From Myxococcota bacterium (lineage in GTDB: Bacteria > Myxococcota_A > UBA9160 > JAFDDA01), in assembly GCA_965228475.1 (NCBI GenBank), contig OZ245817.1:4728524-4760523 (forward strand): a stretch of DNA of 32,000 bases, read 5' to 3'. Shown one piece after another: positions 1 to 32,000 of the stretch; the stretch's first letter is position 1; the number at the start of each line of letters is the position of its first letter. The notes beneath the pieces were generated by a model. The model was not told the DNA's origin, did no database searches, and worked only from the letters and a program-made list of their open reading frames with translations. Made by a program: the position numbers and the translations under genes.

Positions 1-120
1 GCGAAGGGCTTCGCGACCGACTGCCAGGGCTGCCACCTCCCCGCGCGCGCGACGGATTGGGTCTACGTGCAGGGCTACCCGCGCCTCACGGCCGACTCCG
101 CAGCTGAGCCTGGCCGCTAG
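1..120 (+). CDS. 3' end of a haem-c protein (cytochrome P460-like C-terminus), truncated by the window edge
   Basis: Frame 1 reads AKGFATDCQGCHLPARATDWVYVQGYPRLTADSAAEPGR*, with a CxxCH haem-binding motif (CQGCH) and high GC3. The TAG at 118-120 overlaps the GTG of the next gene by 1 nt. The P460-type assignment is from memory of that family's C-termini and is unverified. Confidence 0.45.
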   Translation, partial: AKGFATDCQGCHLPARATDWVYVQGYPRLTADSAAEPGR

Positions 121-1052
121 TGGGCGCCGACGTCCTCAGCGAGGTGCTCACGGCTCTCGAGCTCTCGGCCGTTCCGTGGTTCCGCGCGGAGCTCCACCAC
201 CCGTTCGGCGTCGCCGTCCCGCCCGGCGCCGAGGGTGGGGACGGCGCCATCCGGTTCCACGTCGCGATGGAGAACGACTGCACGATCGCCGTCGGCGAAG
301 ACGAACCGCTGCGCTTTCATGCGGGAGATCTCGTCCTCGTTCCGGGTGGGGCGAGCCATGTCCTCTCCGACTCACCCGGACGCGCCTCTACACCTTTGGC
401 CGAGGCCCTCGCGGGCGCGCGCTTCGACGGGATCGGTCCGATCACGCTCGGCGAAGGCCGCGATCGGACCGTCGTCGTCTGCGGTGAGTTCCGCTTCGCG
501 AACGAGGCGCTCCATCCCTTCGTCGCTTCCCTGCCGTCGTTGCTCCACCTCCCCGCCGAGGAGGGAACGGGCTACGGCTGGGTGGAGAGCCTGCTGGAAC
601 ACCTCGAGCGCGAGGCCCGCCACCAGCGGACGGGCCACGTCGAAGTCATCCGCCGGATCGCCGAGATCCTGCTCATCGAAGTCTTTCGCGCCCGCGCCGA
701 CGACCCGGAGCTCGGCGCGCTCTCCGCGCTCGCGGACCCGCAGCTCCGCCGCGCCCTCGAGGCCATCCACGCCCAGCCCGAGGCGGACTGGCGCCTCGAA
801 CAGCTCGCGCGGATCGCCGGGCAGTCGCGCACGGTCTTCGCCGAGCGGTTCCGGGCGCGCGTCGGCGTCGCGCCGATGAAGTACCTCACCGGCTGGCGGA
901 TGCAGAAGGCGCGCCGCCTGCTCGCCGAGTGTGACGAGCCGGTAGGCTGGGTGGCCCAGCGCGTCGGGTACGGCTCGGAGTCCGCCTTCAACCGGGCCTT
1001 CCGGGAACACTTCGGCGTTCCACCCGGAACCTGGCGCCGGAGCGCCGCCTAG
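120..1052 (+). CDS. AraC family transcriptional regulator (N-terminal cupin-type sensor, C-terminal AraC HTH)
   Basis: 310-aa ORF with a GTG start. The N-terminus (VLSEVLTALELSAVPWFRAEL...) is typical of cupin-type AraC sensors. The C-terminus (WRLEQLARIAGQSRTVFAERFRARVGVAPMKYLTGWRMQKARRLL...GYGSESAFNRAFREHFGVPPGTWRR) is a canonical AraC double HTH. Confidence 0.9.
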   Translation: MGADVLSEVLTALELSAVPWFRAELHHPFGVAVPPGAEGGDGAIRFHVAMENDCTIAVGEDEPLRFHAGDLVLVPGGASHVLSDSPGRASTPLAEALAGARFDGIGPITLGEGRDRTVVVCGEFRFANEALHPFVASLPSLLHLPAEEGTGYGWVESLLEHLEREARHQRTGHVEVIRRIAEILLIEVFRARADDPELGALSALADPQLRRALEAIHAQPEADWRLEQLARIAGQSRTVFAERFRARVGVAPMKYLTGWRMQKARRLLAECDEPVGWVAQRVGYGSESAFNRAFREHFGVPPGTWRRSAA

Positions 1053-1185
1053 CCGCTCGCCCCGGCTCCGCGCTTCCGGACGATCGGGCAAGTCCCGCGA
1101 ACGCCGGCGCGGCTCCCGCGCCTTGGCACCGCATCGAACTCTCCACAACGAACCGGCCCCACCCGGGCCGGAAGGAGAGAAGAAG

Positions 1186-1683
1186 ATGAATCACGATCGA
1201 ACCGTTTCCCGGAACGCTTTCGCCGCACTCGGCGCGCTGCTCTTCGCCTTCGCGATGCCGGCCGCCGCCGAGGACGAGCAGAACCTCTCGCTCGGACTGA
1301 CCGCCGAGGGAAAGCCCCTCGCCATGCACGGCTACGACCCCGTGGCCTACTTCACGCTCGGCGCGCCGACCCTCGGCAGCGCCGCGCACGCCGTCGTCCA
1401 CGAGGGTGCGACCTACTACTTTGTGAGTGAGGACCACGCCAAGCGCTTCCGGAAGTCGCCGGCGAAGTACGCGCCCCAGTTCGGCGGCTACTGCGCCTTC
1501 GGCGTCTCCGTCGGCAAGAAGTTCGACGCGGACCCGCGCTTCTGGGCGGTTTCCGACGGGCGGCTCTTCCTGAACCTGAATGCGGACATCGCGAAGATGT
1601 TCCAGAAGGACGTGCCCGGCGCCGTCGCCAAGGCCGACGGCCAGTGGCGGAAGATCGAGCGCAAGGCGGTCGGCGCGCTCTAG
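1186..1683 (+). CDS. exported YHS-domain protein
   Basis: The ATG at 1186 is preceded by GGAAGGAGAG. There is a signal peptide (AFAALGALLFAFAMPAAA/ED). YHS-type motifs are present: GYDPVAYF, ATYYFVSEDHAKRFRKSPAKYAPQFGGYCAFG. I prefer this internal start over the ORF-track start at 1123 because of the RBS and signal-peptide position. Confidence 0.85.
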   Translation: MNHDRTVSRNAFAALGALLFAFAMPAAAEDEQNLSLGLTAEGKPLAMHGYDPVAYFTLGAPTLGSAAHAVVHEGATYYFVSEDHAKRFRKSPAKYAPQFGGYCAFGVSVGKKFDADPRFWAVSDGRLFLNLNADIAKMFQKDVPGAVAKADGQWRKIERKAVGAL

Positions 1684-8840: not shown

Positions 8841-8853
8841 CGGGCGTCGAGCG

Positions 8854-8926
8854 TGGGCCCTCCAGGATTCGAACCTGGGTCCCTCCGGTTATGAGCCGGG
8901 TGCTCTAACCACTGAGCTAAGGGCCC
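8854..8926 (-). tRNA. tRNA-Met (anticodon CAU; a lysidine-modified Ile2 identity cannot be excluded)
   Basis: The reverse complement is GGGCCCT-TA-GCTC-AGTGGTTA-GAGC-A-CCCGG-CTCATAA-CCGGA-GGGAC-CCAGG-TTCGAAT-CCTGG-AGGGCCC-A. It folds as a full cloverleaf with a 7-bp acceptor stem and a GTTCGAATC T-loop. The G1-C72 pair argues against an initiator tRNA. CCA is not encoded. Confidence 0.9.
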
Positions 8927-17644: not shown

Positions 17645-17670
17645 GTAACCGGCCGCGCGCCGGGTGCGTA
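17645..17670 (+). promoter_or_regulatory. candidate ECF-sigma-type promoter (GTAACC-N16-CGTA)
   Basis: GTAACC lies at 17645-17650, followed by a 16-nt spacer and CGTA at 17667-17670, about 50 nt upstream of the precursor ATG. It has the AAC-N16/17-CGT architecture of ECF promoters. Confidence 0.35.
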
Positions 17671-17719
17671 GTGGTTTGTGAAGCCGGAACACCGGCGAAA
17701 ATCCAACGAAGGAGACTCG

Positions 17720-17998
17720 ATGAAGACCCGAAGTGGCATGCTGGCCGCGGCCGCGGCCTCCCTGTTCATGGCCGGTGGCGCGGCCCTGGTGGCCGCCCCG
17801 GCGGCAGCGGAAGACAAGATCAAGTGCGAGGGCGTGAACTCCTGCAAGAGCCACAGCGATTGCAAGACGCTCTTCAGCGAGTGTGCCGGCCACAACGACT
17901 GCGCCGGCAAGGGTTTCAAGATGCTCACGCCGGAAGAGTGCGACGAGGCGAAGGCCGAGATGGCGCGCAAGGCCGGTGAGAGCAAGGACCGCATGTAG
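17720..17998 (+). CDS. bufA: bufferin-type RiPP precursor: Sec signal peptide plus a six-Cys core (DUF2282/BufA-like)
   Basis: The ATG at 17720 is preceded by AAGGAGA. The product is 92 aa. The signal peptide is MKTRSGMLAAAAASLFMAGGAALVAAPAAA/EDK. The core is EDKIKCEGVNSCKSHSDCKTLFSECAGHNDCAGKGFKMLTPEECDEAK..., with 6 Cys and two CxGxNxC motifs. The stop TAG abuts the ATG of the DUF692 gene. Confidence 0.8.
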   Translation: MKTRSGMLAAAAASLFMAGGAALVAAPAAAEDKIKCEGVNSCKSHSDCKTLFSECAGHNDCAGKGFKMLTPEECDEAKAEMARKAGESKDRM

Positions 17999-18886
17999 AT
18001 GAGCCATGCGCCCGGTACGCGGTCCGACGCCCCCTATCTCGGTGTCGGCGTCGGGCTGCGGCCGGTGCACTACGGCGAGCTGCTCTCGCGCGCCGCCGAA
18101 GGCCGGCTCGAGATCGACTGGGTCGAGGCCACGAGCGAGAACTACATGATCCCGGGCGGGCGGCCGCTGCGCATCCTCTCCGAGGTGCGCGCCGCCCTTC
18201 CCCTCGTTCTCCACGGCGTCTCGATGAGCCTCGGCTCGACCGATCCGCTCGACGCCGGCTACCTCGACGACCTCGACACCCTCGCCGCACGCTTCGAGCC
18301 GAGCTGGGTCTCGGACCACCTGTGCTGGACCGGCGTCGGCGGCCACAACCTGCACGACCTGCTCCCGCTGCCCTACACGGAGGAGGTCGTCCGCCACCTG
18401 GCCACGCGGATCCGGCGGGTGCAGGAACGCCTCGGGCGGCGCATCGCCGTCGAGAACGTCTCCTCCTACGTGAGCTTCGCGGCGAGCGCCCTCACGGAGT
18501 GGGAGTTCCTCTCCGCCGTCGCCGAAGAGGCGGACTGCGGAATCCTCCTCGACGTGAACAACGTCTTCGTCTCCGCCCACAACCACGGCTTCGACGCCCG
18601 CACCTACCTCGCAGCGATCGACCCGGATCGCATCTTCCAGATCCACCTCGCGGGGCCGAGCGAGGAAGGCCCGCTGCTCATCGACACCCACGACCACCCG
18701 GTGCGGGAAGAGGTCTGGCAGCTCTACGCGGAGCTCGTCGCCCGCACGGGGCCCGTCTCCACCTTGATCGAATGGGATGCGAACCTCCCGAGCTTCGAGC
18801 GACTCTGCCAGGAAGCGAAGCGGGCGCGCACGATCCTCGATGCCGAGGCAAGCGGGAGCGCCCGTGCAGTCGGAGCCCTCGGTTGA
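17999..18886 (+). CDS. bufB: DUF692 / MNIO (multinuclear non-haem iron oxidative) peptide-modifying enzyme, MbnB/BufB-like
   Basis: 295 aa with classic DUF692 blocks: GVGLRPVHY, IDWVEATSENYM, LHGVSMSLGSTDPLD, WVSDHLCW, HDLLPLPYTEE, ENVSSYV, EWEFL, CGILLDVNNVFVSAHNHGFD, IHLAG, IDTHDHPV, TLIEWD. Confidence 0.9.
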   Translation: MSHAPGTRSDAPYLGVGVGLRPVHYGELLSRAAEGRLEIDWVEATSENYMIPGGRPLRILSEVRAALPLVLHGVSMSLGSTDPLDAGYLDDLDTLAARFEPSWVSDHLCWTGVGGHNLHDLLPLPYTEEVVRHLATRIRRVQERLGRRIAVENVSSYVSFAASALTEWEFLSAVAEEADCGILLDVNNVFVSAHNHGFDARTYLAAIDPDRIFQIHLAGPSEEGPLLIDTHDHPVREEVWQLYAELVARTGPVSTLIEWDANLPSFERLCQEAKRARTILDAEASGSARAVGALG

Positions 18887-19674
18887 GCGCCCTCGCCGAC
18901 GCCCAGGAGCGGCTCTGGCGCTTCATCACCGCGCCGAGCGGCGTGCGTGCAGCCCTCGCAGAGGCCGGGCCTGCCGAGCGCGACGCCTTCGAGACCCTGC
19001 TGGCGCGCGACGACGCACTTCCGAGCGCGCTCCGCCTCGAGATCTACGCCAACGCCTATTTCCAGCGCATCCTCGAGGTGCTCGAGCGCGACTTCGAGGC
19101 ACTCGCTGCGGCCCTCGGCGAGGCCGGCTTCCACGATCTCGTGACGGCCTACCTGTGCGTCCACCCGCCCCGCCGCGCTTCCCTGCGCCACGCCGGGGCC
19201 GAGCTTCCCGGCTTCCTCGCTGCGCACGAGGCCGCCGCACCGTTCCGCTCCCGCTGGCCCTTCGCCGCGGACCTGGTCCGGTTCGAGTGGGCCAAGGGCA
19301 TCGCCTTCGACGCGCCGGATGCGGAGCCCCTCGGCCGGGAGCACCTCGCCCGCGTTGCGCCCGAGCGTTGGGACGGCCTCTGCTTCGCGCTCCAGCCGGG
19401 CGCCGCGCTGCTCGAGTTCGGTTGGGACGTCACCGAAGCCGCGCCCGTGCTGCGTCCGACCCGCGTGCGCGTCTGGAGGAAGCGGGAGCGCGTGCACCAC
19501 CGCAAGATCGAGGACGAAGAGTTCGCGCTGCTCGCGGACCTCGTCGCCGGAGCGTCCTTCGGGGATCTTTGTGCCCGGCTCGTCGCGGTGGCGGGTGAGG
19601 AAGAGGCCCCGCAACGTGCCGCGGGCTGGCTCGCCCACTGGCTCGAGGACGAGCTCCTGGCCGCCCGGCCCTAG
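18883..19674 (+). CDS. bufC: DUF2063 protein (partner subunit of DUF692 enzymes, BufC-like)
   Basis: The in-frame TTG at 18883 overlaps the bufB TGA (TTGA), and no ATG or GTG lies nearby in frame. DUF2063-like blocks are present: LRLEIYANAYFQRILEVLERDFEALAAALGEAGFHDLVTAYLCVHPP...LRHAGAELPGFL. The exact start is uncertain. Confidence 0.8.
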   Translation: MSALADAQERLWRFITAPSGVRAALAEAGPAERDAFETLLARDDALPSALRLEIYANAYFQRILEVLERDFEALAAALGEAGFHDLVTAYLCVHPPRRASLRHAGAELPGFLAAHEAAAPFRSRWPFAADLVRFEWAKGIAFDAPDAEPLGREHLARVAPERWDGLCFALQPGAALLEFGWDVTEAAPVLRPTRVRVWRKRERVHHRKIEDEEFALLADLVAGASFGDLCARLVAVAGEEEAPQRAAGWLAHWLEDELLAARP

Positions 19675-19687
19675 CCGGCCGCTGGCG

Positions 19688-20434
19688 CTAGACCGCCGGG
19701 ATGTGCTCGCGAATCTCCGCGAGCACGCGGTCCGGGTGCGAGCGCACCTGGTAGTTCTCCGACTGATCGATCCAGCGCACGATCCCCTTCGCGTCGACGA
19801 GGAACGTCGTCGGGACGGGCATGCCGGTGACGCCCTTCGGCGTGATGCTGTTCGGGTTCCGAAGACCGTAGCGGTCGGTCACCGCGAGATCCGCGTCCGA
19901 GAGCATCACCGCGTTCGCGCCGTGCTTCTTGCGTCCCTTGCGGATCTCCGCCGGCGTGTCGCTGCTCACGGTCACGAGCGAGACGCCGTGGGCATCGAGC
20001 TCGGGCCGCATCTCTTCCCATCGCCGCAACTCGGCGACACAGTACGGTCACCAGTGGCCGCGGAAGAACTTCAGCAGGTAGGGCTTGCCCGAGAGGCTCG
20101 AGAGGGCGAACTCGGCACCCCCGTCGTCGACGGCGCTGAACTCGATGATGCGCTCGCCGACGCCGGTCTTCGGCGGCGTGCGCGACTGCCCCGCGAAGGG
20201 CTGCAGGAAGAGGAACGTGCCCGAGAGCGCGAGCGCCAGGCCCGCGCCGATCTTGCCGAGGAGGCCCGCGCCCGCCACGAAGGCGGTCACGGCGAGGAGC
20301 GCGCCGAGGCCCATCGCAGCGATCACGAGGCTTCGCACCTCGGCGGTGCGAACCGCCTGCATGCGCTGGAACCAGAGCGCGCCGGTGGCGCCGACCACCG
20401 TGACCGCGAGCAAGGCGAAGAGGTTGCCGTCCAT
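19688..20434 (-). CDS. membrane-anchored thioredoxin-fold redoxin (AhpC/TSA-like) with an in-frame TGA at the first Cys of the CxxC motif; candidate selenoprotein (UxxC)
   Basis: Track ORFs 20048..20434 and 19688..20029 are in the same frame. They are separated only by a TGA (20048-20050) and 6 sense codons. Read through, the junction is GKPYLLKFFRGHW-U-PYCVAELRRWEEMRPELDAHGVSLVTVSSD..., a textbook redoxin W-C-x-x-C context. GC3 is high on both sides. The downstream part has no RBS or ATG of its own. The N-terminus has about 3 TM helices. Confidence 0.6.
20019..20039 (-). promoter_or_regulatory. SECIS-like hairpin downstream of the in-frame UGA
   Basis: The mRNA reads UGA CCGUACUGUG-UCGCCG-AGUUG-CGGCGA-UGG. 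There is a 6-bp perfect GC-rich stem (20021-20037), extendable by two G.U pairs. The 5-nt apical loop contains GU about 18 nt after the UGA. Confidence 0.4.
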
Positions 20435-23296: not shown

Positions 23297-25111
<1,815 letters not shown>

Positions 25112-25131
25112 GGGTTTCTCCTTGAGACCTT

Positions 25132-26964
25132 CTAAAAAGCTGCGCTGCTTGAGCTGCCGGGGCGGCCGGGGGGCCGCACCGACGGTTCGGGGACATGGGT
25201 TCTTCGGCGTCGGCGCTCGACGCGCTGCTGGGCCTCGGCCAGAAGCTCCGCATCGGAGAGCTCCTGCCGCTGCCAGCGGCGGCGCCGGTCGCGTCCTTCG
25301 TCGCGCTGGGTGGCTTCTTGGAGGCTCGCCACCACGTCCGCGAAGACTCGTTTCGCCCGCTCGGCGTCGCCCGCGAAGCGATCGTCGAGCACGACGCTGC
25401 GGAGCACCGCCAGCGCCACGGGATCCTCGCCGGCACCCGCGCCGTCGGCGGCGTCGATCGCGGCGACGTCGACCGTTCCGGCGCGCGCCGCTTCGTCGAG
25501 GGCGCGGGAGAGGGCCGTCCGGGCGGGGCTCTCGGGAACCAGGGAAAGCAGCGCGTCGTGAGGCTCGACGCTCGCGAGGCTCGGGTCGGACACGATCGCG
25601 GCGATCAGATCGAGGGTCCAACGCACGCGGCGGTCGTCGCGCCGCGGCGGCTCGGGGACGGCTTCCCGCGCGGCGGTCTCCCCGCCGCTGCGCGCGCGCA
25701 GCGTCGCCTGCTCGACCGCGGCGATCTCGACGTCCACGGCCAGGGCGAGCTGGCGGATGCGCTCGCTGCGCTCGACGGCATCGGGCACGAGCGCGAACAG
25801 CGGCGCCACGGCCGCAACGGCATCCGCCTTCTCCCAGGGCGTCGCGCAGCCGCGGGCGACCGCACGCGAGATCACGCGGTCGAAGGCCGGCTCGGAGGCG
25901 TCGACGCGGGCGCGCAGGCCCTCGGCCCCCTCGCTCGCGAGCAGGTCGTCGGGGTCCTGGCCGGCCGGGAGGAGCACCGTCTCCGCGCGCAGCCCTTCGG
26001 GTAACAGGACCTCGAGAGCGGACTCCGCCGCGCGCTGGCCGGCCTCGTCGCCATCGAAGACCAGGACCACGCGGCCCGTCCGTCGGCGGAGCGCCCGCGC
26101 ATGCTCGGCGGTGAGCGCCGTGCCGCAGGTCGCCACGGCTTCCTCGATGCCGGCGCGGTGCATCGCGATCCGGTCGAAGTACCCCTCCACGACGACCGCC
26201 CTCTCGCTCTTCCGCATGGCCGCGACGGCGTCGTTCAGGCCGTAGAAGACTTCGCGCTTCTTATAGATTGGGCTCTCGGGGGTGTTCAGGTACTTCGGCT
26301 TCTGCTCGTCCTGGGTCGCGCGGCCGCCGAACCCGAGCACCTGGCCGCGTGCATCCTGGATCGGGAAGGTGATGCGCCCGCGCAGCATGTCGTAGCTGCG
26401 GCCTTCGCGATTCCCGATCAACCCGGCCTGCTGGCCGATGGCCGCCGGGATCTTCTCGCGCTCGAGGCGTCCGAGCAGCGCACGCCCGCTCGCCGGCGCG
26501 AAGCCGATGCCGAAGCGCGCGATCTCCTCCGGTCCGATGCCCCGCTTCGCCAGATACGCGCGCGCGGCCTCCGCTTCCGGCGCGCGCAGGGCCTCGGCGT
26601 AGAGCGCCTGGGCGGTCTGGTTCGCGCCGCGGAGCTTCTCCGAGAGCCCCGCCTCGCCCGGCGCGGCGTGCTCGGGAATCTCGATCCCGAGCTCGCGGGC
26701 GAGGGTCCGCACCGCCTCGGGGAAGGTGAGGTTCTCGTGCATCATCAGGAACGTGATGGCGTTGCCGCCCTCGCCGCACCCGAAGCAATGGAAGATCTGC
26801 CGTTCGACGTTGACGTTGAACGACGGAGTCTTTTCGTCGTGGAAGGGACAAAGCCCGGAAAAGTTGCGTCCGGACTTCTTAAGGCTGACGTGGCGTCCGA
26901 TCAGTTCGACCAGATCGACGCGATCCCGAATGGCTTGGAGGGTTTCCTCGGGAATGCGTGCCAC
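25132..26964 (-). CDS. dnaG: DNA primase
   Basis: 610 aa with a GTG start. There is a zinc-ribbon segment: [45 protein letters not shown] region ([17 protein letters not shown]...[14 protein letters not shown]) follows. Confidence 0.95.
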
Positions 26965-26976
26965 TTCGACCCCGAC

Positions 26977-27174
26977 CTAGCGCGCCGCCCTCTTGAGCTT
27001 CTTCAGCGCCCGCTTCCGTGCCGCCGCAGCCTTCTTCTTCTTGCGGATGCTCGGCTTGTCGTAGTACTCGCGGCGGCGCAGCTCAGTGAGGATTCCGGCC
27101 TTTTCGCACTGCTTCTTGAAGCGCTTCATGGCCTGTTCGAAGGTTTCGTTCTCTTTGACTTTGACGACCGGCAT
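26977..27174 (-). CDS. rpsU: 30S ribosomal protein S21
   Basis: 65 aa: [48 protein letters not shown]... Its position ahead of dnaG-rpoD is the classical macromolecular-synthesis operon arrangement. Confidence 0.95.
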
Positions 27175-27478
27175 TCGAGCGGGTCTCCCAGCGAATCTGA
27201 CGCTCCGTCAGATGCGCGACGCTATCGGAAGTAAGTGGTCGCGGAAACCCGCTCGTGTCGGAAGCTGCCGGTTGAAGAACGCGGCCGGGAGAGGCCGGTG
27301 GGCGGCGGCAACTTCGCCACAGAACTGAGTTTTACGCGCTATCCCCCAGAAAAACTGAACAAATTCAAACGTTTGCCAGCACCCGTGCGCGAGGCCGAGC
27401 AAGGCTAGCCCAGGGGTTTTCCGCCTGCCACGACGCCGCGTGTCATCGAATCGTTCCCCAAGCCCCGAGAATTTCGTG

Positions 27479-28357
27479 CTAGGCGCGAGGGCCTTCCAGG
27501 GGCTCCCTGGGAGGCCGGACGGGGATGCCGAGGGCCATCAGATCGCGCTTCACCTCCCCCACCGTCGTTTCCTTGAAGTGGAAGATCGAGGCCGCCAGCG
27601 CCGCCTGGGCGTGGCCGCCTTCGGGGCCGTCGTCGAGGGCCTTCGCCATGTCCTCGGCGCTGCCGCCGCCGCCGGAGGCGATCACCGGGATGGGGATCGC
27701 GTCCGCCACGGTGCGCACGGCTTCGAGGTCGTAGCCCGCCTTCGTCCCGTCGCGATCCATGCTCGTGAGCAGGATCTCGCCGGCGCCCGCCTCGGCCATC
27801 GCGCGCGCCCAGGCCACGGCATCGATCCCCGCCGGCGTGCGCCCGCCGTGGGTACAGACCTCCCAGCGCGATTCGCCGGGGACGATGGGTGCGAGCGCGG
27901 CACCCGCGAGCTTCTCCCCGCCGGCGCGCTCGCTCGGAACGAGGACATCGCCCGAGACCGCACGCGCATCGATCGCGACGACGAGGTTCGCGCTGCCGAT
28001 CTTCGCCGCGGCGCGCGCGACGAGGTCCGGATCCTTCACCGCGGCGGTCATGATCGAGACCTTGTCCGCGCCGGCGTTCAAGAGATCCCGGATGTCGTCG
28101 AGGCTGCGCACGCCGCCCCCCACCGTGAGCGGCATGAAGACGGTCTCGGCCGTGCGCGAGACGACGTCGAAGATCGTGCGGCGTTCCTGGTGGCTCGCGG
28201 TGATGTCGAGGAAGGTGATCTCGTCGGCTTCCTGGGCATCGTACATCTGGGCGACCTCGACCGGGTCGCCCGCGTCGACGTGGTCGACGTACTGCACGCC
28301 CTTCACGACGCGGCCGTCGGCGACGTCGAGGCACGGGATGATGCGCTTCTTCAGCAT
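27479..28357 (-). CDS. hisF: imidazole glycerol phosphate synthase, cyclase subunit
   Basis: The ATG at 28357 gives [24 protein letters not shown]...FLDITAS...[10 protein letters not shown]...ASGGGGS...AALAASIFH. It carries an extra ~20-aa segment ([25 protein letters not shown]) and a short C-terminal tail relative to typical HisF. Confidence 0.95.
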
Positions 28358-28373
28358 CGCGGCGCCCGCATCT

Positions 28374-29114
28374 TCACGAGGATGCCTCGACGGCCTCGGC
28401 CAGATCGACCGCACCGGTGTAGAGCGCGCGGCCGACGATGATGCCGGCGATGCCGTCCGCCTGGGCCTCGGCCGCCGCACGCACGTGGGCGACTTCGCCG
28501 ACGCCGCCGGAGACGATCACGGGGATCGAGACGGCGCGCGCGAGCTCTCGGGTCGCCTCGAGGTTCGGCCCGGTCTGCATGCCGTCGCGCGCGATGTCGG
28601 TGTGGATGATGGCCGCGACGCCCGCGTCCTCGAAGCGCCGGGCGAGATCCACGGCCGTGGTCTCGCTCGCCTCGAGCCAGCCTTCGACCGCGACGCGCCC
28701 GTCCTTGGCGTCGATGCCGACGGCCACCTGCCCGGGGAAGGCGCGGGCGGCTTCGCGCACGAGCTCGGGTTCGCGCAGGGCCACCGTCCCGAAGATCACG
28801 CGCTCGACGCCGAGGGCGAGGGTCTCCTCCGCGATCTCCACGCTCCGGATGCCGCCGCCGACCTGGAGCGGAACCTTCCCGGCGGCGTCGGCGACCTCGG
28901 CGATCCGGCGGATCGCCTCGCGGTTGCGCGGGGTGCCCTCCTTCGCGCCGTCGAGATCCACCGCGTGGAGGCGGCGCACCTTCGCGGCGACGAAGCGCTC
29001 GGCCATCGCGCCCGGGTCGTCGCCGTACTCCGTCGCCTGGTCGTAGCGCCCCTGGGAGAGACGCACGCAGCGCCCCCCGAGGAGGTCGATGGCCGGGATC
29101 AGCTCGAACGCCAT
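28374..29114 (-). CDS. hisA: 1-(5-phosphoribosyl)-5-[(5-phosphoribosylamino)methylideneamino]imidazole-4-carboxamide isomerase
   Basis: 246 aa: [24 protein letters not shown]...LHAVDLDGA...LQVGGGIRS...[16 protein letters not shown]...VIVSGGVG...GIIVGRALY. Confidence 0.95.
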
Positions 29115-29121
29115 GGCCGCC

Positions 29122-29784
29122 CTAGTAGGCGCTCTCGCCGGCGGGCATGGACTTCGACATCTCGCTCGCGCCCCAGCGCGCGAGCTCCTCCGCCGTCAGC
29201 CAGCGCGTGCCGCCGCCCGGGTAGCGGCGCACGTTCAGCAGGTTCTCGTTGATCGGCTGCTGCGTCTCTTCGAACGTGCCGCTCCACAGACGCCGCGCGG
29301 CCGGGGCGTCCTGGAGCATCACGCGGAATCCCACGCTCGCCGGGTTCGCCGCGGCGAGGGATTGCCCCGTCCGCTCGCGGAAGCGGGTCACCGTGCCGGT
29401 CAGGACGCCGTCGGCCCCGAAGGCGAAGGCCGCGAGGTTCGCGATGGGCCGCCGGTTCTCCGGAATGGCCGGGTCGAGGCCCGCCTCGTCGAGGGCGACG
29501 CGGAAGTCGTCCGCCGGAATGACGCGCACGCCGCGGCCGGCCAGGGCTTCGGTCACGTAGCGCGTCACGAGCTTGGTGACGGCCTCCGTCGAATCCGTCG
29601 TGTTCTCGGGGCCGCTGCGCTTGAGATCCCCGCCCGTGGTGAAGGGGACCACCACGACCTTGCTCACCGTGGCGCCGCCGCGGTCTTCGAAGGCCGGGAA
29701 GGTCTCCTGGCGGACCGTGTCGAAGGCACAGGCGGAGAGCAGCAGCGCCGCGGCCGCGGCCCAGACCGTTCGCACGCGCCTCAC
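29122..29784 (-). CDS. hypothetical lipoprotein embedded in the his operon
   Basis: The GTG at 29784 overlaps the hisH TGA (GTGA), and the stop lies 7 nt before the hisA ATG. The lipobox is AAALLLSAC. The body (KVVVVPFTTGG...VTEALAGRGVRVIP...FGADGVLTGTVTRF) follows the alpha/beta pattern of small periplasmic lipoproteins (LpoB/GNA1162-like by pattern only). It is the last ~220 aa of the 402-aa track ORF. Confidence 0.7.
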   Translation of the reverse strand: MRRVRTVWAAAAALLLSACAFDTVRQETFPAFEDRGGATVSKVVVVPFTTGGDLKRSGPENTTDSTEAVTKLVTRYVTEALAGRGVRVIPADDFRVALDEAGLDPAIPENRRPIANLAAFAFGADGVLTGTVTRFRERTGQSLAAANPASVGFRVMLQDAPAARRLWSGTFEETQQPINENLLNVRRYPGGGTRWLTAEELARWGASEMSKSMPAGESAY

Positions 29785-30407
29785 TGGGCCACCCACTCGG
29801 CGTAGGCGGAAAGCAGACGGTGACCCGCGGACTGACTCTTCTCGGGATGGAACTGCACGGCGAAGATGCCCTCCCTGGCGACGGCCGATGCGAAAGGTCC
29901 ACCATACTCCGTCACGCCGACCACGTCGCTCGCTTCCGCGGGGCGCGCGTAGTAGGAGTGGACGAAGTAGTAGTCCTCTTTCTCCGGCAGGCCGCCGAGC
30001 ATCGGGTGCGCACCCGAGAAGGCGACCTCGTTCCAGCCGATGTGCGGCACCGGAAGCGACGTCTCGGGGAAGCGCTCGACGCGGCCCGGCAGCACCCCGA
30101 AGCCCTTCGTCACGCCGTGCTCGTGGCCCTCTTCGAACAGCAGCTGGAGCCCGAGGCACAGGCCCAGGTAGGGCTTGCCGTCTTCGATCGCGCGGACGAC
30201 CGCGGCGTCGAGCCCCTTGCTGGCGAGGCTCTCGGCGGCGTCCTTGAACGCACCGACGCCCGGCAGGACGACGCCGTCGGCGCGCGCGAGGGCCGCCGGG
30301 TCGCCGGTGACCTCGACGCGCAGCGGACACTGCTCGAGCGCCTTCGCCACGCTGCGAAGGTTTCCGTAGCCGTAGTCCACGACGGCGATGGTGGGGAGGG
30401 GGGACAT
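29781..30407 (-). CDS. hisH: imidazole glycerol phosphate synthase, glutamine amidotransferase subunit
   Basis: 208 aa: IAVVDYGYGNLRSVAKAL...VLPGVGAF...PYLGLCLGLQLLF...PHIGWN...YFVHSY...AVQFHPEKS. Confidence 0.95.
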   Translation of the reverse strand: MSPLPTIAVVDYGYGNLRSVAKALEQCPLRVEVTGDPAALARADGVVLPGVGAFKDAAESLASKGLDAAVVRAIEDGKPYLGLCLGLQLLFEEGHEHGVTKGFGVLPGRVERFPETSLPVPHIGWNEVAFSGAHPMLGGLPEKEDYYFVHSYYARPAEASDVVGVTEYGGPFASAVAREGIFAVQFHPEKSQSAGHRLLSAYAEWVAQ

Positions 30408-30411
30408 GTCT

Positions 30412-30493
30412 TTCCGTTCGAAGCTCGCGGGTTCCGTTCGGGGCTCGGGCGTTCCGTTCGAAGCCTTGGGGGTTCGGCCGTTCGCTCTGCGGG
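30412..30493. repeat. tandem array of a 20-bp unit (3 good copies plus 1 degenerate) in the hisB-hisH spacer
   Basis: The copies are ttccgttcgaagctcgcggg (30412-30431), ttccgttcggggctcgggcg (30432-30451) and ttccgttcgaagccttgggg (30452-30471). A degenerate copy, ttcggccgttcgctctgcggg, follows. The conserved core is TTCCGTTCG. Confidence 0.7.
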
Positions 30494-30498
30494 TCGGG

Positions 30499-31089
30499 CT
30501 AGAGGCTGCCCTTCACCGAGGGCACGCCCTCGACACGCGGGTCGAGCTCCACCGCTTCGCGCAGTGCTCGTGCCGCGCCCTTGAAGACCGCCTCGACGAC
30601 GTGGTGCGGGCTATTCCCGTACCGCTGCTCCACGTGGAGGTCGAGCCCGGCGTTCTGCGAGAACGCGTAGAGGAAATCTTCGACCAGCGAGACGTCGAAG
30701 TTCCCGACGCGATCGTTCGGCAGGTTCACGAGGTAGACCATGTAGGGACGGTTCGAGACGTCGACGGAGGTCTCGACCTTCGACTCGGCCATCGGCAGCA
30801 CGCAGTGCCCGAAGCGCCGGATGCCCTCGGCGTTGCCGAGCGCCTCGCGGACGGCCTGACCGAGGGTGATGCCGACGTCCTCGACCGTGTGGTGCAGATC
30901 GACCTCGAGATCGCCCTTGGCCTCGAGCCGCAGGTCGAAGAGCCCGTGCTTGGTGAAGGACTCGAGCATGTGGTCGAAGAACGGGATGCCGGTCGCCACC
31001 TCGTAGCTGCCGGTGCCGTCCAGATCGAGCTCGATCCGGATCTCCGTTTCCTTCGTCTTCCGCGTGATCTGCGAGCGTCGCCCACTCAC
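30499..31089 (-). CDS. hisB: imidazoleglycerol-phosphate dehydratase
   Basis: 196 aa with a GTG start: RKTKETEIRIELDLDG...TGIPFFDHML...DLHHTVEDVGI...NSHHVVEAVFKG-like blocks (here NSPHHVVEAVFKGAARAL). Confidence 0.95.
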   Translation of the reverse strand: MSGRRSQITRKTKETEIRIELDLDGTGSYEVATGIPFFDHMLESFTKHGLFDLRLEAKGDLEVDLHHTVEDVGITLGQAVREALGNAEGIRRFGHCVLPMAESKVETSVDVSNRPYMVYLVNLPNDRVGNFDVSLVEDFLYAFSQNAGLDLHVEQRYGNSPHHVVEAVFKGAARALREAVELDPRVEGVPSVKGSL

Positions 31090-31129
31090 GGCTTTCCCTC
31101 TTCTTTCTGCGTCAGCCCGGCCGCGAAGC

Positions 31130-32000
31130 TCACGGCTGGACCTCCGCTTCCCGCGCCGCCTCGCGCTCCCGGCGCGCGCGGCGAATCTTCTGCAAGCGTA
31201 GCTCCACCGAGTTGGCGTGGCCGGTCAGGCCTTCGAGCTCGGCCAGGCGGATCACCTCGGTCCCGAGCTCGCGCATCTTCGGCGGCTCGAATCGCATGAA
31301 GCTCATCCGCTTCATGAAATCCTCGACGCCGAGCGGCGAGAAGAAGCGCGCCGTGCCCCCCGTCGGCAGCACGTGGCTCGGCCCGGCGAGGTAGTCCCCG
31401 ACGGCCTCGGGCGTGTAGTGCCCGAGGAAGACGGCCCCGGCGTTCTCGACCTGCTTCAGCGCCACGTCCGGCTTCTCGATGGCGAGCACCAGGTGCTCGG
31501 GCGCGTAGCGGTTCGCGAGGGCGATCGACTCCTCGAGGTTCTTCGTGAGGATGATCGCGCCGCGGTCCGCGAGGGACTTCTTCGCGATCTTCGCGCGCTC
31601 GAGACTCTTCAGCTGCTTTGCGAGCTGGTCCTGCACCTTGGTGATGAGACCCTTCGTGTGGGTCACGAGGATCGGGCACGCGACCTCGTCGTGCTCGGCC
31701 TGGGAGAGCAGGTCCGCCGCGACCCAGGGCGCCGTCGCCGTGCGGTCGGCCACGATCAGGATCTCACTCGGGCCTGCCTCGGAGTCGATCGCGACCTGGC
31801 CGAAGACGAGGCTCTTGGCCGTCGCCACCCAGACGCTCCCGGGCCCGACGATCTTGTCGACGGCGGGCACGGACTCGGTGCCGTAGGCGAGCGCCGCCAC
31901 CGCGTGCGCGCCGCCCATCTTGAAGATGCGGTGGACGCCGGCCAGGCGCGCGGCCATCAGCACGTCCGGGCGGATGCTGCCGTCGGGCTGGGGCGGCGTG
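31130..32000 (-). CDS. hisD: histidinol dehydrogenase, 5'-truncated by the window edge
   Basis: The frame stays open to the window end (TPPQPDGSIRPDVLMAARLAG...). Conserved blocks are present: GGAHAVAALAYGTESVPAVDKIVGPGSVWVATAK, IDSEAGPSEILIVAD, QAEHD, YAPEHL, GDYLAGPSHVLPTGGTARF. Confidence 0.95.
   Translation of the reverse strand, partial: TPPQPDGSIRPDVLMAARLAGVHRIFKMGGAHAVAALAYGTESVPAVDKIVGPGSVWVATAKSLVFGQVAIDSEAGPSEILIVADRTATAPWVAADLLSQAEHDEVACPILVTHTKGLITKVQDQLAKQLKSLERAKIAKKSLADRGAIILTKNLEESIALANRYAPEHLVLAIEKPDVALKQVENAGAVFLGHYTPEAVGDYLAGPSHVLPTGGTARFFSPLGVEDFMKRMSFMRFEPPKMRELGTEVIRLAELEGLTGHANSVELRLQKIRRARREREAAREAEVQP

Follow-up and report, generated by a model that had tools for sequence, protein, structure and literature searches.

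The question raised by this locus is whether three coupled genes on the plus strand of a 32,000-nucleotide stretch from a Myxococcota bacterium (GenBank assembly GCA_965228475.1, contig OZ245817.1, positions 4,728,524 to 4,760,523; hereafter, the window) form a complete pathway for a bufferin, a peptide made by the ribosome and modified after translation (RiPP), and, if so, to which class the product belongs, how far the system extends and what it responds to. The genes, here designated bufA2, bufB and bufC, encode a cysteine-rich precursor, a multinuclear non-haem iron oxidative enzyme (MNIO, formerly DUF692) and a DUF2063 partner. A first-pass annotation made from the sequence alone had proposed a bufferin-type RiPP cluster with an exported precursor, an MNIO and a DUF2063 protein, and matches to curated family models above their cutoffs support that proposal. 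We consider it highly probable that the three genes are a self-contained biosynthetic operon for a Buf2-type bufferin ('captophorin').

Gene structure and the precursor BufA2

The three genes occupy positions 17720-19674 and encode proteins of 92, 295 and 263 amino acids, respectively. The bufA2 gene (17720-17998) extends from an ATG at 17720 to a TAG at 17996-17998 and is preceded by a Shine-Dalgarno-like AAGGAG, seen directly in the sequence on the plus strand (17709-17714), 5 nt upstream of the ATG. The bufB gene (17999-18886) begins with an ATG at 17999, immediately after the bufA2 stop codon (TAGATG), and ends with a TGA at 18884-18886, which is overlapped by the TTG start of bufC at 18883 (TTGA; bufC, 18883-19674). 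The tight coupling of the three plus-strand genes had been described in the first-pass annotation, and all its structural statements, including both junctions and the lengths, are borne out; position 17645, where it had placed the beginning of the locus, is not the start of a gene but is intergenic and coincides with the promoter-like motif considered below.

The precursor matches the NCBIfam model NF050166 (Cu_RiPP_BufA2) with 75.9 bits (cutoff 60; E = 2.1 × 10−21) over profile positions 3-77 of 79. By inspection, its N-terminus consists of MKTRSG, with the basic residues K2 and R4, followed by a 23-residue hydrophobic stretch and an AAA/ED cleavage-type site after residue 30, and there is no cysteine at position +1 of this site, that is, no lipobox; this N-terminal region can be aligned across homologues. 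The earlier description of an exported cysteine-rich peptide of 92 residues with a 62-residue core accordingly holds, the Sec-type signal peptide (17720-17809) being read from inspection and from the name of the family model. The core (17810-17995) contains six cysteines, C36, C42, C48, C55, C61 and C74, of which C55 is nearly invariant and the other five are invariant in an alignment of 21 homologues, where they are embedded in the motif CEGVNSCK-HSDCKT-...-CxGxNxCxGKGF-...-EC. The same CCCCCC pattern was found in 83 of the 88 BufA2 open reading frames (ORFs) of related loci. We identified 70 homologues of the precursor, with up to 92% identity, one of which is already named BufA2 at NCBI.

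The Pfam model PF10048 (DUF2282) did not match the precursor even at E ≤ 10, and assignment to DUF2282/BufA1 was rejected given the lack of this match and the presence of six core cysteines instead of four. Of the DUF2282/BufA-type models against which the first-pass annotation had proposed to search, BufA2 was thus matched above its cutoff, and DUF2282 was not, so that the precursor is to be placed with Buf2 rather than Buf1; judged by its sequence, it is a BufA2 of the Buf_6/12Cys or 'Cys-Lys' group. Some precursor homologues have weak precomputed matches to PF10048, which suggests that the DUF2282 and BufA2 families are related.

The AlphaFold2 model of the precursor has a low confidence (mean predicted local distance difference test, pLDDT, 63) and was judged too uncertain for a fold search. 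In this model, CysI lies in a strand (residues 34-37) and CysVI in a helix (residues 71-90), a placement that agrees with the published disulfide between these elements (PMC11626156).

The enzyme BufB and its partner BufC

BufB exceeds the cutoff of its own equivalog model, NF050167 (MNIO_BufB; 363.4 bits, cutoff 310), and matches the Pfam family PF05114 (MbnB_TglH_ChrH) with 358 bits (E = 2.7 × 10−107). Mapping of the iron ligands by alignment to 3BWW, TglH and MbnB, which are MNIOs of solved structure, together with the published list of MbnB ligands (PMC9060507), shows that all nine positions are intact (H72, H107, E152, D185, N188, H216, D229, H231 and E258), and each of these is conserved in 80-81 of 81 related enzymes. 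Residue D260, which corresponds to FonB-D249, the proposed catalytic base, is invariant among the 81 sequences. The claim that the second gene encodes a DUF692 protein with all the MNIO blocks is therefore confirmed. The accompanying statement that standard annotation would call all three proteins hypothetical is outdated, given that NF050166 and NF050167 name two of them and that a homologue of the precursor is labelled BufA2.

BufC matches the Pfam model PF09836 (DUF2063) with 62.6 bits (cutoff 27.2), in agreement with its initial description as a DUF2063 protein whose start overlaps the DUF692 stop codon. The NCBIfam model HvfC matches it over the full length (E = 1.2 × 10−13) with 51.5 bits, compared to an equivalog cutoff of 142, and the Pfam model NGO1945_C matches weakly (15.2, cutoff 27). 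A sequence search of the Protein Data Bank (PDB) with BufC returned nothing meaningful; kinship with NGO1945 and TglI emerged from fold comparison only. The AlphaFold2 model of BufC (pLDDT 94.7) has NGO1945 (3DEE) as its best PDB match in Foldseek (E = 3.7 × 10−6), with further matches to TglI (8HI7_A), the partner of TglH, and to the lasso-peptide B1 RiPP recognition element (RRE) 6JX3_B (probability 0.98). The predicted architecture of BufC can confidently be described as the expected one, a DUF2063 domain followed by a C-terminal RRE-like domain.

These comparisons also bear on the possibility that the locus belongs to another class of MNIO-dependent RiPPs, such as oxazolin and its EGKCG-containing relatives (HvfABC), methanobactin or yet another class. 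BufB is matched by the HvfB model (254.5 bits) and by the ApyH, MbnB and ChrH models, and HvfC is the sole NCBIfam match of BufC. All these enzyme models, however, score under their curated cutoffs (360 for HvfB; for the MbnB equivalog TIGR04159, 62.6 compared to 325), whereas BufB passes its own; the precursor lacks the EGKCG motif and its repeats, matches BufA2 and begins with a signal peptide, not with a leader of the methanobactin type; and no MbnC is encoded at the locus. We therefore give this assignment next to no chance.

Within the Buf2 assignment, BufB differs from most of its relatives at residue 261 (18779-18781), which is Ala, as in 14 of the 81 sequences, compared to Asp in 60. 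The Asp at this position has been proposed in the literature to contact the Lys that follows each modified cysteine. In the precursor, the residues following CysII, CysIII, CysIV and CysV are K, K, A and A, respectively (Ala at 56 and 62), and the combination of Ala261 with Ala after CysIV and CysV implies that the number of modified cysteines could differ. Across loci, the residue at 261 and those that follow the modified cysteines show a loose tendency to correspond, and a clean rule linking the two was rejected. On these sequence comparisons, the pairing of Ala261 with a Cys-Ala precursor appears to be a minor variant.

Conservation and limits of the module

To delimit the system, we compared the locus with 80 genome loci from many phyla that contain the nearest BufB relatives (52-65% identity), the closest of which come from Thermodesulfobacteriota, 'Deltaproteobacteria' and Myxococcota metagenome-assembled genomes (MAGs; approximately 65% identity). 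A BufA2-like ORF lies directly upstream of bufB in 68 of the 80 loci, and a BufC homologue directly downstream in 78, with the trio spread over Myxococcota, Binatia, Acidobacteriota, Alpha-, Beta- and Gammaproteobacteria and others; the co-conservation of the three genes, lack of which the first-pass annotation had named as a weaker argument against its proposal, is thus evident. Four close metagenomic relatives, with precursors 73-83% identical, retain the trio amid wholly different neighbours. The gene located 3' of bufC is heterogeneous across the related loci and encodes DoxX in only 1 of 61. No DoxX gene was found in the window either, as had been noted initially; the suggestion that this absence sets the locus apart from described operons does not hold, and DoxX absence as a peculiarity was rejected, since DoxX is also missing from the founding Buf2 operon, bufA2B2C2 of Caulobacter vibrioides (CCNA_03001-02999; Leprevost et al., PNAS 2024, PMC11626156).

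The module is flanked upstream by a gene for a Pyr_redox_2 flavoprotein (Pfam) on the same strand, which ends 112 bp 5', and downstream by a convergent gene for an AhpC/TSA redoxin (Pfam) with an in-frame TGA, at a distance of 13 bp. This adjacency, and the fact that the flavoprotein and the redoxin are both redox proteins, might suggest a system larger than the trio, in which one or both neighbours act as partners, for example, as a substitute for DoxX. Yet homologues of the flavoprotein, the redoxin and the TetR protein are found beside the module in none of the 80 related genome loci, and neither the flavoprotein nor the redoxin adjoins it in the four close metagenomic relatives. The redoxin gene is on the opposite strand, a promoter motif between the flavoprotein gene and bufA2 suggests separate transcription, and DoxX itself is dispensable for Buf1 function and modification (PMC11626156). 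A functional tie of the module to the flanking flavoprotein, redoxin or TetR genes was accordingly rejected for want of co-conservation, which largely refutes the larger system and leaves it very improbable. The initial observation of an FAD/NAD(P) oxidoreductase gene directly upstream was correct as to position and strand but does not identify a distinguishing feature of the system. Because the trio is kept while its neighbours vary, the functional unit predicted from these comparisons is three genes, and the neighbours are incidental.

The remainder of the window, which has a GC content of 70%, is of a housekeeping character (rpoD, dnaG, rpsU, hisD, hisB, hisH, hisA and hisF within 23297-32000; tRNA-Met at 8853-8926), so the bufferin module appears to be chromosomal and on no obvious island. 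The sole faintly metal-related gene in the window encodes a 186-residue protein (1123-1683, plus strand) with a weak match to the YHS metal-binding domain (25.2 bits, cutoff 30.3) and adjoins a gene for an AraC/Cupin_6 regulator (120-1052, plus strand).

Among the related loci, several have expanded arrangements. Two Gammaproteobacteria MAGs have a further MNIO-DUF2063 pair after the Buf2 trio (L009, 2988-5004; L010, 7195-9109), and the ORF between the two pairs (L009, 2645-3010; L010, 6777-7217) has a size that fits DUF2282 (Buf1-type) precursors. Two DUF2282 matches were scored among the related loci as a whole, without assignment to particular loci, and that a Buf1 cluster comes after the Buf2 cluster in these two MAGs is an unconfirmed suggestion. 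In seven further loci, mainly from Bradyrhizobium and Hyphomicrobium (L034, L036, L047, L066, L070, L075 and L076), two BufA2-like ORFs precede a single BufB; tandem bufferin precursors have already been noted in the literature.

A promoter-like motif upstream of bufA2 and the possible inducer

Upstream of bufA2, on the plus strand at 17645-17670, lies a predicted promoter of the type recognized by the extracytoplasmic function (ECF) factor sigmaF, GTAACC-N16-CGTA, the 3' end of which is 50 nt before the ATG. A single substitution separates it from the experimentally derived sigmaF site of Caulobacter crescentus (GTAACC-N16-CGAA; PMC3511200). When both strands of the window were searched for GTAAC-N17-CGT, this was the single match. 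All four close relatives, with upstream sequences that are otherwise unalignable, have the motif in front of bufA2, as do 7 of 65 genome loci, compared to 0.55 in shuffled sequences and 0 on the reverse strand. From this we infer that an ECF sigmaF-like, stress-responsive promoter drives bufA2BC.

One close relative has 2-3 tandem copies of the segment with the -35 element, CACCGGTAACCGGGCTTTGCCCGC, upstream of bufA2 (L129, approximately 990-1040; L130, approximately 175-255), and the CGTA -10-like element follows the last copy only. A scan for sigma-70 promoters detected no site, a terminator scan returned two weak terminator-like hairpins, no more than expected by chance, and Rfam scans found the tRNA-Met alone. 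Below the Rfam gathering score of 36, there was a Guanidine-III match inside bufC, in the antisense orientation (19295-19356, minus strand; 24.7 bits); this sub-threshold candidate riboswitch was rejected as most likely a chance match in GC-rich DNA.

The predicted ECF sigmaF-like promoter leads us to propose that the locus is stress-induced, which raises the question of the stress. The chemistry could be that of a bufferin while the physiological trigger or target is something other than copper, whether a different metal (gold, mercury, cadmium or chromate) or an oxidant, for instance, hypochlorite. Caulobacter ECF systems of the SigF/NrsF type respond to chromate and cadmium (PMC3511200), two reports on other bacteria describe a hypochlorite response of such systems (PMC4436054, PMC8315932), a survey of the bufferin landscape records MerC fusions and gold-related gig operons (PMC12452194), and nothing copper-related was found in the window. 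Both characterized bufferins, as well as fontiphorin, oxazolin and gonophorin, are nonetheless tied to copper, and Cu induces bufA2 of C. vibrioides, whereas Fe, Zn and Mn do not. On balance, a trigger or target other than copper appears unlikely, although it deserves some weight, and copper remains the preferred reading.

Proposed mechanism and comparison with characterized systems

By analogy with Buf1 and Buf2 of C. vibrioides and with related systems, from which the thiooxazole chemistry, the identity of the modified cysteines, export, copper binding and the regulator are transferred here, the pathway would proceed as follows. Transcription would probably start at the ECF sigmaF-like promoter directly upstream, and BufA2 would be synthesized with its Sec signal peptide. 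Prior to export, a BufB-BufC complex would act on it, with BufB as the iron- and O2-dependent MNIO and with substrate recruitment by BufC, its DUF2063/RRE-like partner. Together, the two would oxidize the four central cysteines (C42, C48, C55 and C61) to 5-thiooxazole heterocycles and leave the outer pair, C36 and C74, unmodified and joined as a disulfide. The modified 62-residue protein would then be exported to the periplasm, where it may buffer excess copper via thiooxazole sulfur and nitrogen ligands.

Comparison with the C. vibrioides operon shows that the locus fits the published Buf2 description point by point. There, BufA2 has a core of 61 residues with six cysteines, of which the central ones each lose 4.03 Da, whereas CysI and CysVI are unmodified, and the operon is copper-induced and under SigF (PMC11626156). 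The modification has since been firmly assigned as 5-thiooxazole. Thousands of Buf2 precursors are known, 90% of them with six cysteines (PMC12452194). The present locus shares with C. vibrioides buf2 the order of precursor, MNIO and DUF2063 partner without DoxX, a Sec signal peptide, a core of approximately 61-62 residues with six conserved cysteines, matches of the precursor and the enzyme above the cutoffs of the NCBIfam equivalogs BufA2 and BufB, respectively, and a promoter motif one base off the sigmaF site that controls the Caulobacter operon. Unlike that operon, it comes from an uncultured lineage of 70% GC and has no sigF/nrsF gene nearby; it also departs from Buf2 bufferins by Ala261 instead of the usual Asp in BufB, by Ala in place of Lys after CysIV and CysV, and by a longer charged C-terminal helix in the precursor.

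The other known systems are more distant. Buf1 (bufA1B1C1D1) employs the same enzyme subfamily and partner, and conversion of cysteine to 5-thiooxazole, a disulfide between the outer cysteines and periplasmic copper buffering would be common to both, but Buf1 precursors have four cysteines and DUF2282, and the operons usually include DoxX and often sigma/anti-sigma genes, none of which is present here. The EGKCG captophorins, that is, oxazolin (Haemophilus influenzae HvfABC), gonophorin (Neisseria gonorrhoeae, with the partner NGO1945) and fontiphorin, likewise depend on an MNIO and a DUF2063/RRE partner that install 5-thiooxazoles on an exported cysteine-rich substrate, as is presumed for the present locus, and NGO1945 is the top PDB match of the BufC model; their 'Lys-Cys' precursors, however, are built of EGKCG repeats, and the HvfB and HvfC models fall short of their cutoffs on BufB and BufC. 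Methanobactin (MbnABC) would share the MNIO TIM-barrel enzyme with the same iron ligands and a cysteine-derived, copper-binding heterocycle, but the homology is distant, as reflected by the MbnB score, and it differs in the MbnC partner, the leader peptide and the oxazolone-thioamide product, which is secreted as a chalkophore.

Several points weigh against a typical Buf2 pathway. Modification, export, metal binding and regulation are assigned to this locus by analogy; the structural model of the precursor is of low confidence; BufC scores under the cutoff of HvfC, the one NCBIfam equivalog at hand; BufB has Ala261, and Ala rather than Lys follows CysIV and CysV; and no ECF sigma factor, anti-sigma factor (NrsF) or copper-resistance gene was found in the window. 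Ala261, the Cys-Ala positions, the extended charged C-terminal helix and, in a Myxococcota-like lineage, an ECF sigmaF-like promoter could also mark a sub-clade whose bufferin is modified in another pattern or differs in metal selectivity, conceivably with the adjacent membrane-anchored selenocysteine redoxin servicing the product; this we regard as improbable. Taken together, the gene structure, family membership, catalytic residues and partner fold, along with the conservation of the trio and of the promoter motif, are those observed at the locus, and the Buf2-type operon remains the interpretation that we favour.

The convergent redoxin gene

The gene that converges on bufC (19688-20434, minus strand) encodes an AhpC/TSA redoxin with a hydrophobic N-terminal region, predicted to be membrane-anchored, and contains an in-frame TGA (20048-20050) in the motif GHW-U-PYC, at which automatic gene calling breaks it into two ORFs, 107 and 128 amino acids long. 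A search returned 47 related metagenome loci, and of the 29 that were compared, 22 have TGC or TGT at the corresponding position and 7 have TGA; the sequence is conserved to either side of the codon. Beginning 9 nt after the UGA, a hairpin of the selenocysteine insertion sequence (SECIS) type, GUCGCCG-AGUUG-CGGCGAU, with a 7-bp stem, lies at 20020-20038 on the minus strand. This hairpin or a close variant recurs in 5 of the 7 TGA forms, as in the window, and in a sixth, more distant TGA form, the same AGUUG loop sits on a shorter stem of 5 bp; in all but one UGA form, the AGUUG-loop hairpin starts 9-11 nt downstream of the UGA. Most of the Cys forms contain synonymous codons (CUG, CGC) that disrupt the hairpin. 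Taken in its entirety, the 86-nt SECIS region shows no unusual stability (z = -0.48); the evidence for a SECIS comes from the retention of the hairpin in UGA forms while most Cys forms break it. That the redoxin is a selenoprotein, as predicted from its selenocysteine/Cys pair and a bacterial SECIS, is strongly supported. The candidate seleno-redoxin of the first-pass annotation thus stands as a selenoprotein, but not as a component linked to the bufferin genes, with which it is not co-conserved.

Implications

The locus is a further instance, from an uncultured high-GC bacterium, of a bufferin family known in thousands of genomes, and it does not alter what is known of bufferins. The neighbouring seleno-redoxin is a clean case of automatic callers splitting a gene at a UGA codon. 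Its value is modest and twofold: it shows that Buf2 operons of distant lineages, too, come with the promoter signature of the sigmaF type described in Caulobacter, and its natural Asp-to-Ala variant of BufB, which occurs together with a Cys-Ala substrate, could help to define how enzyme and substrate are matched.

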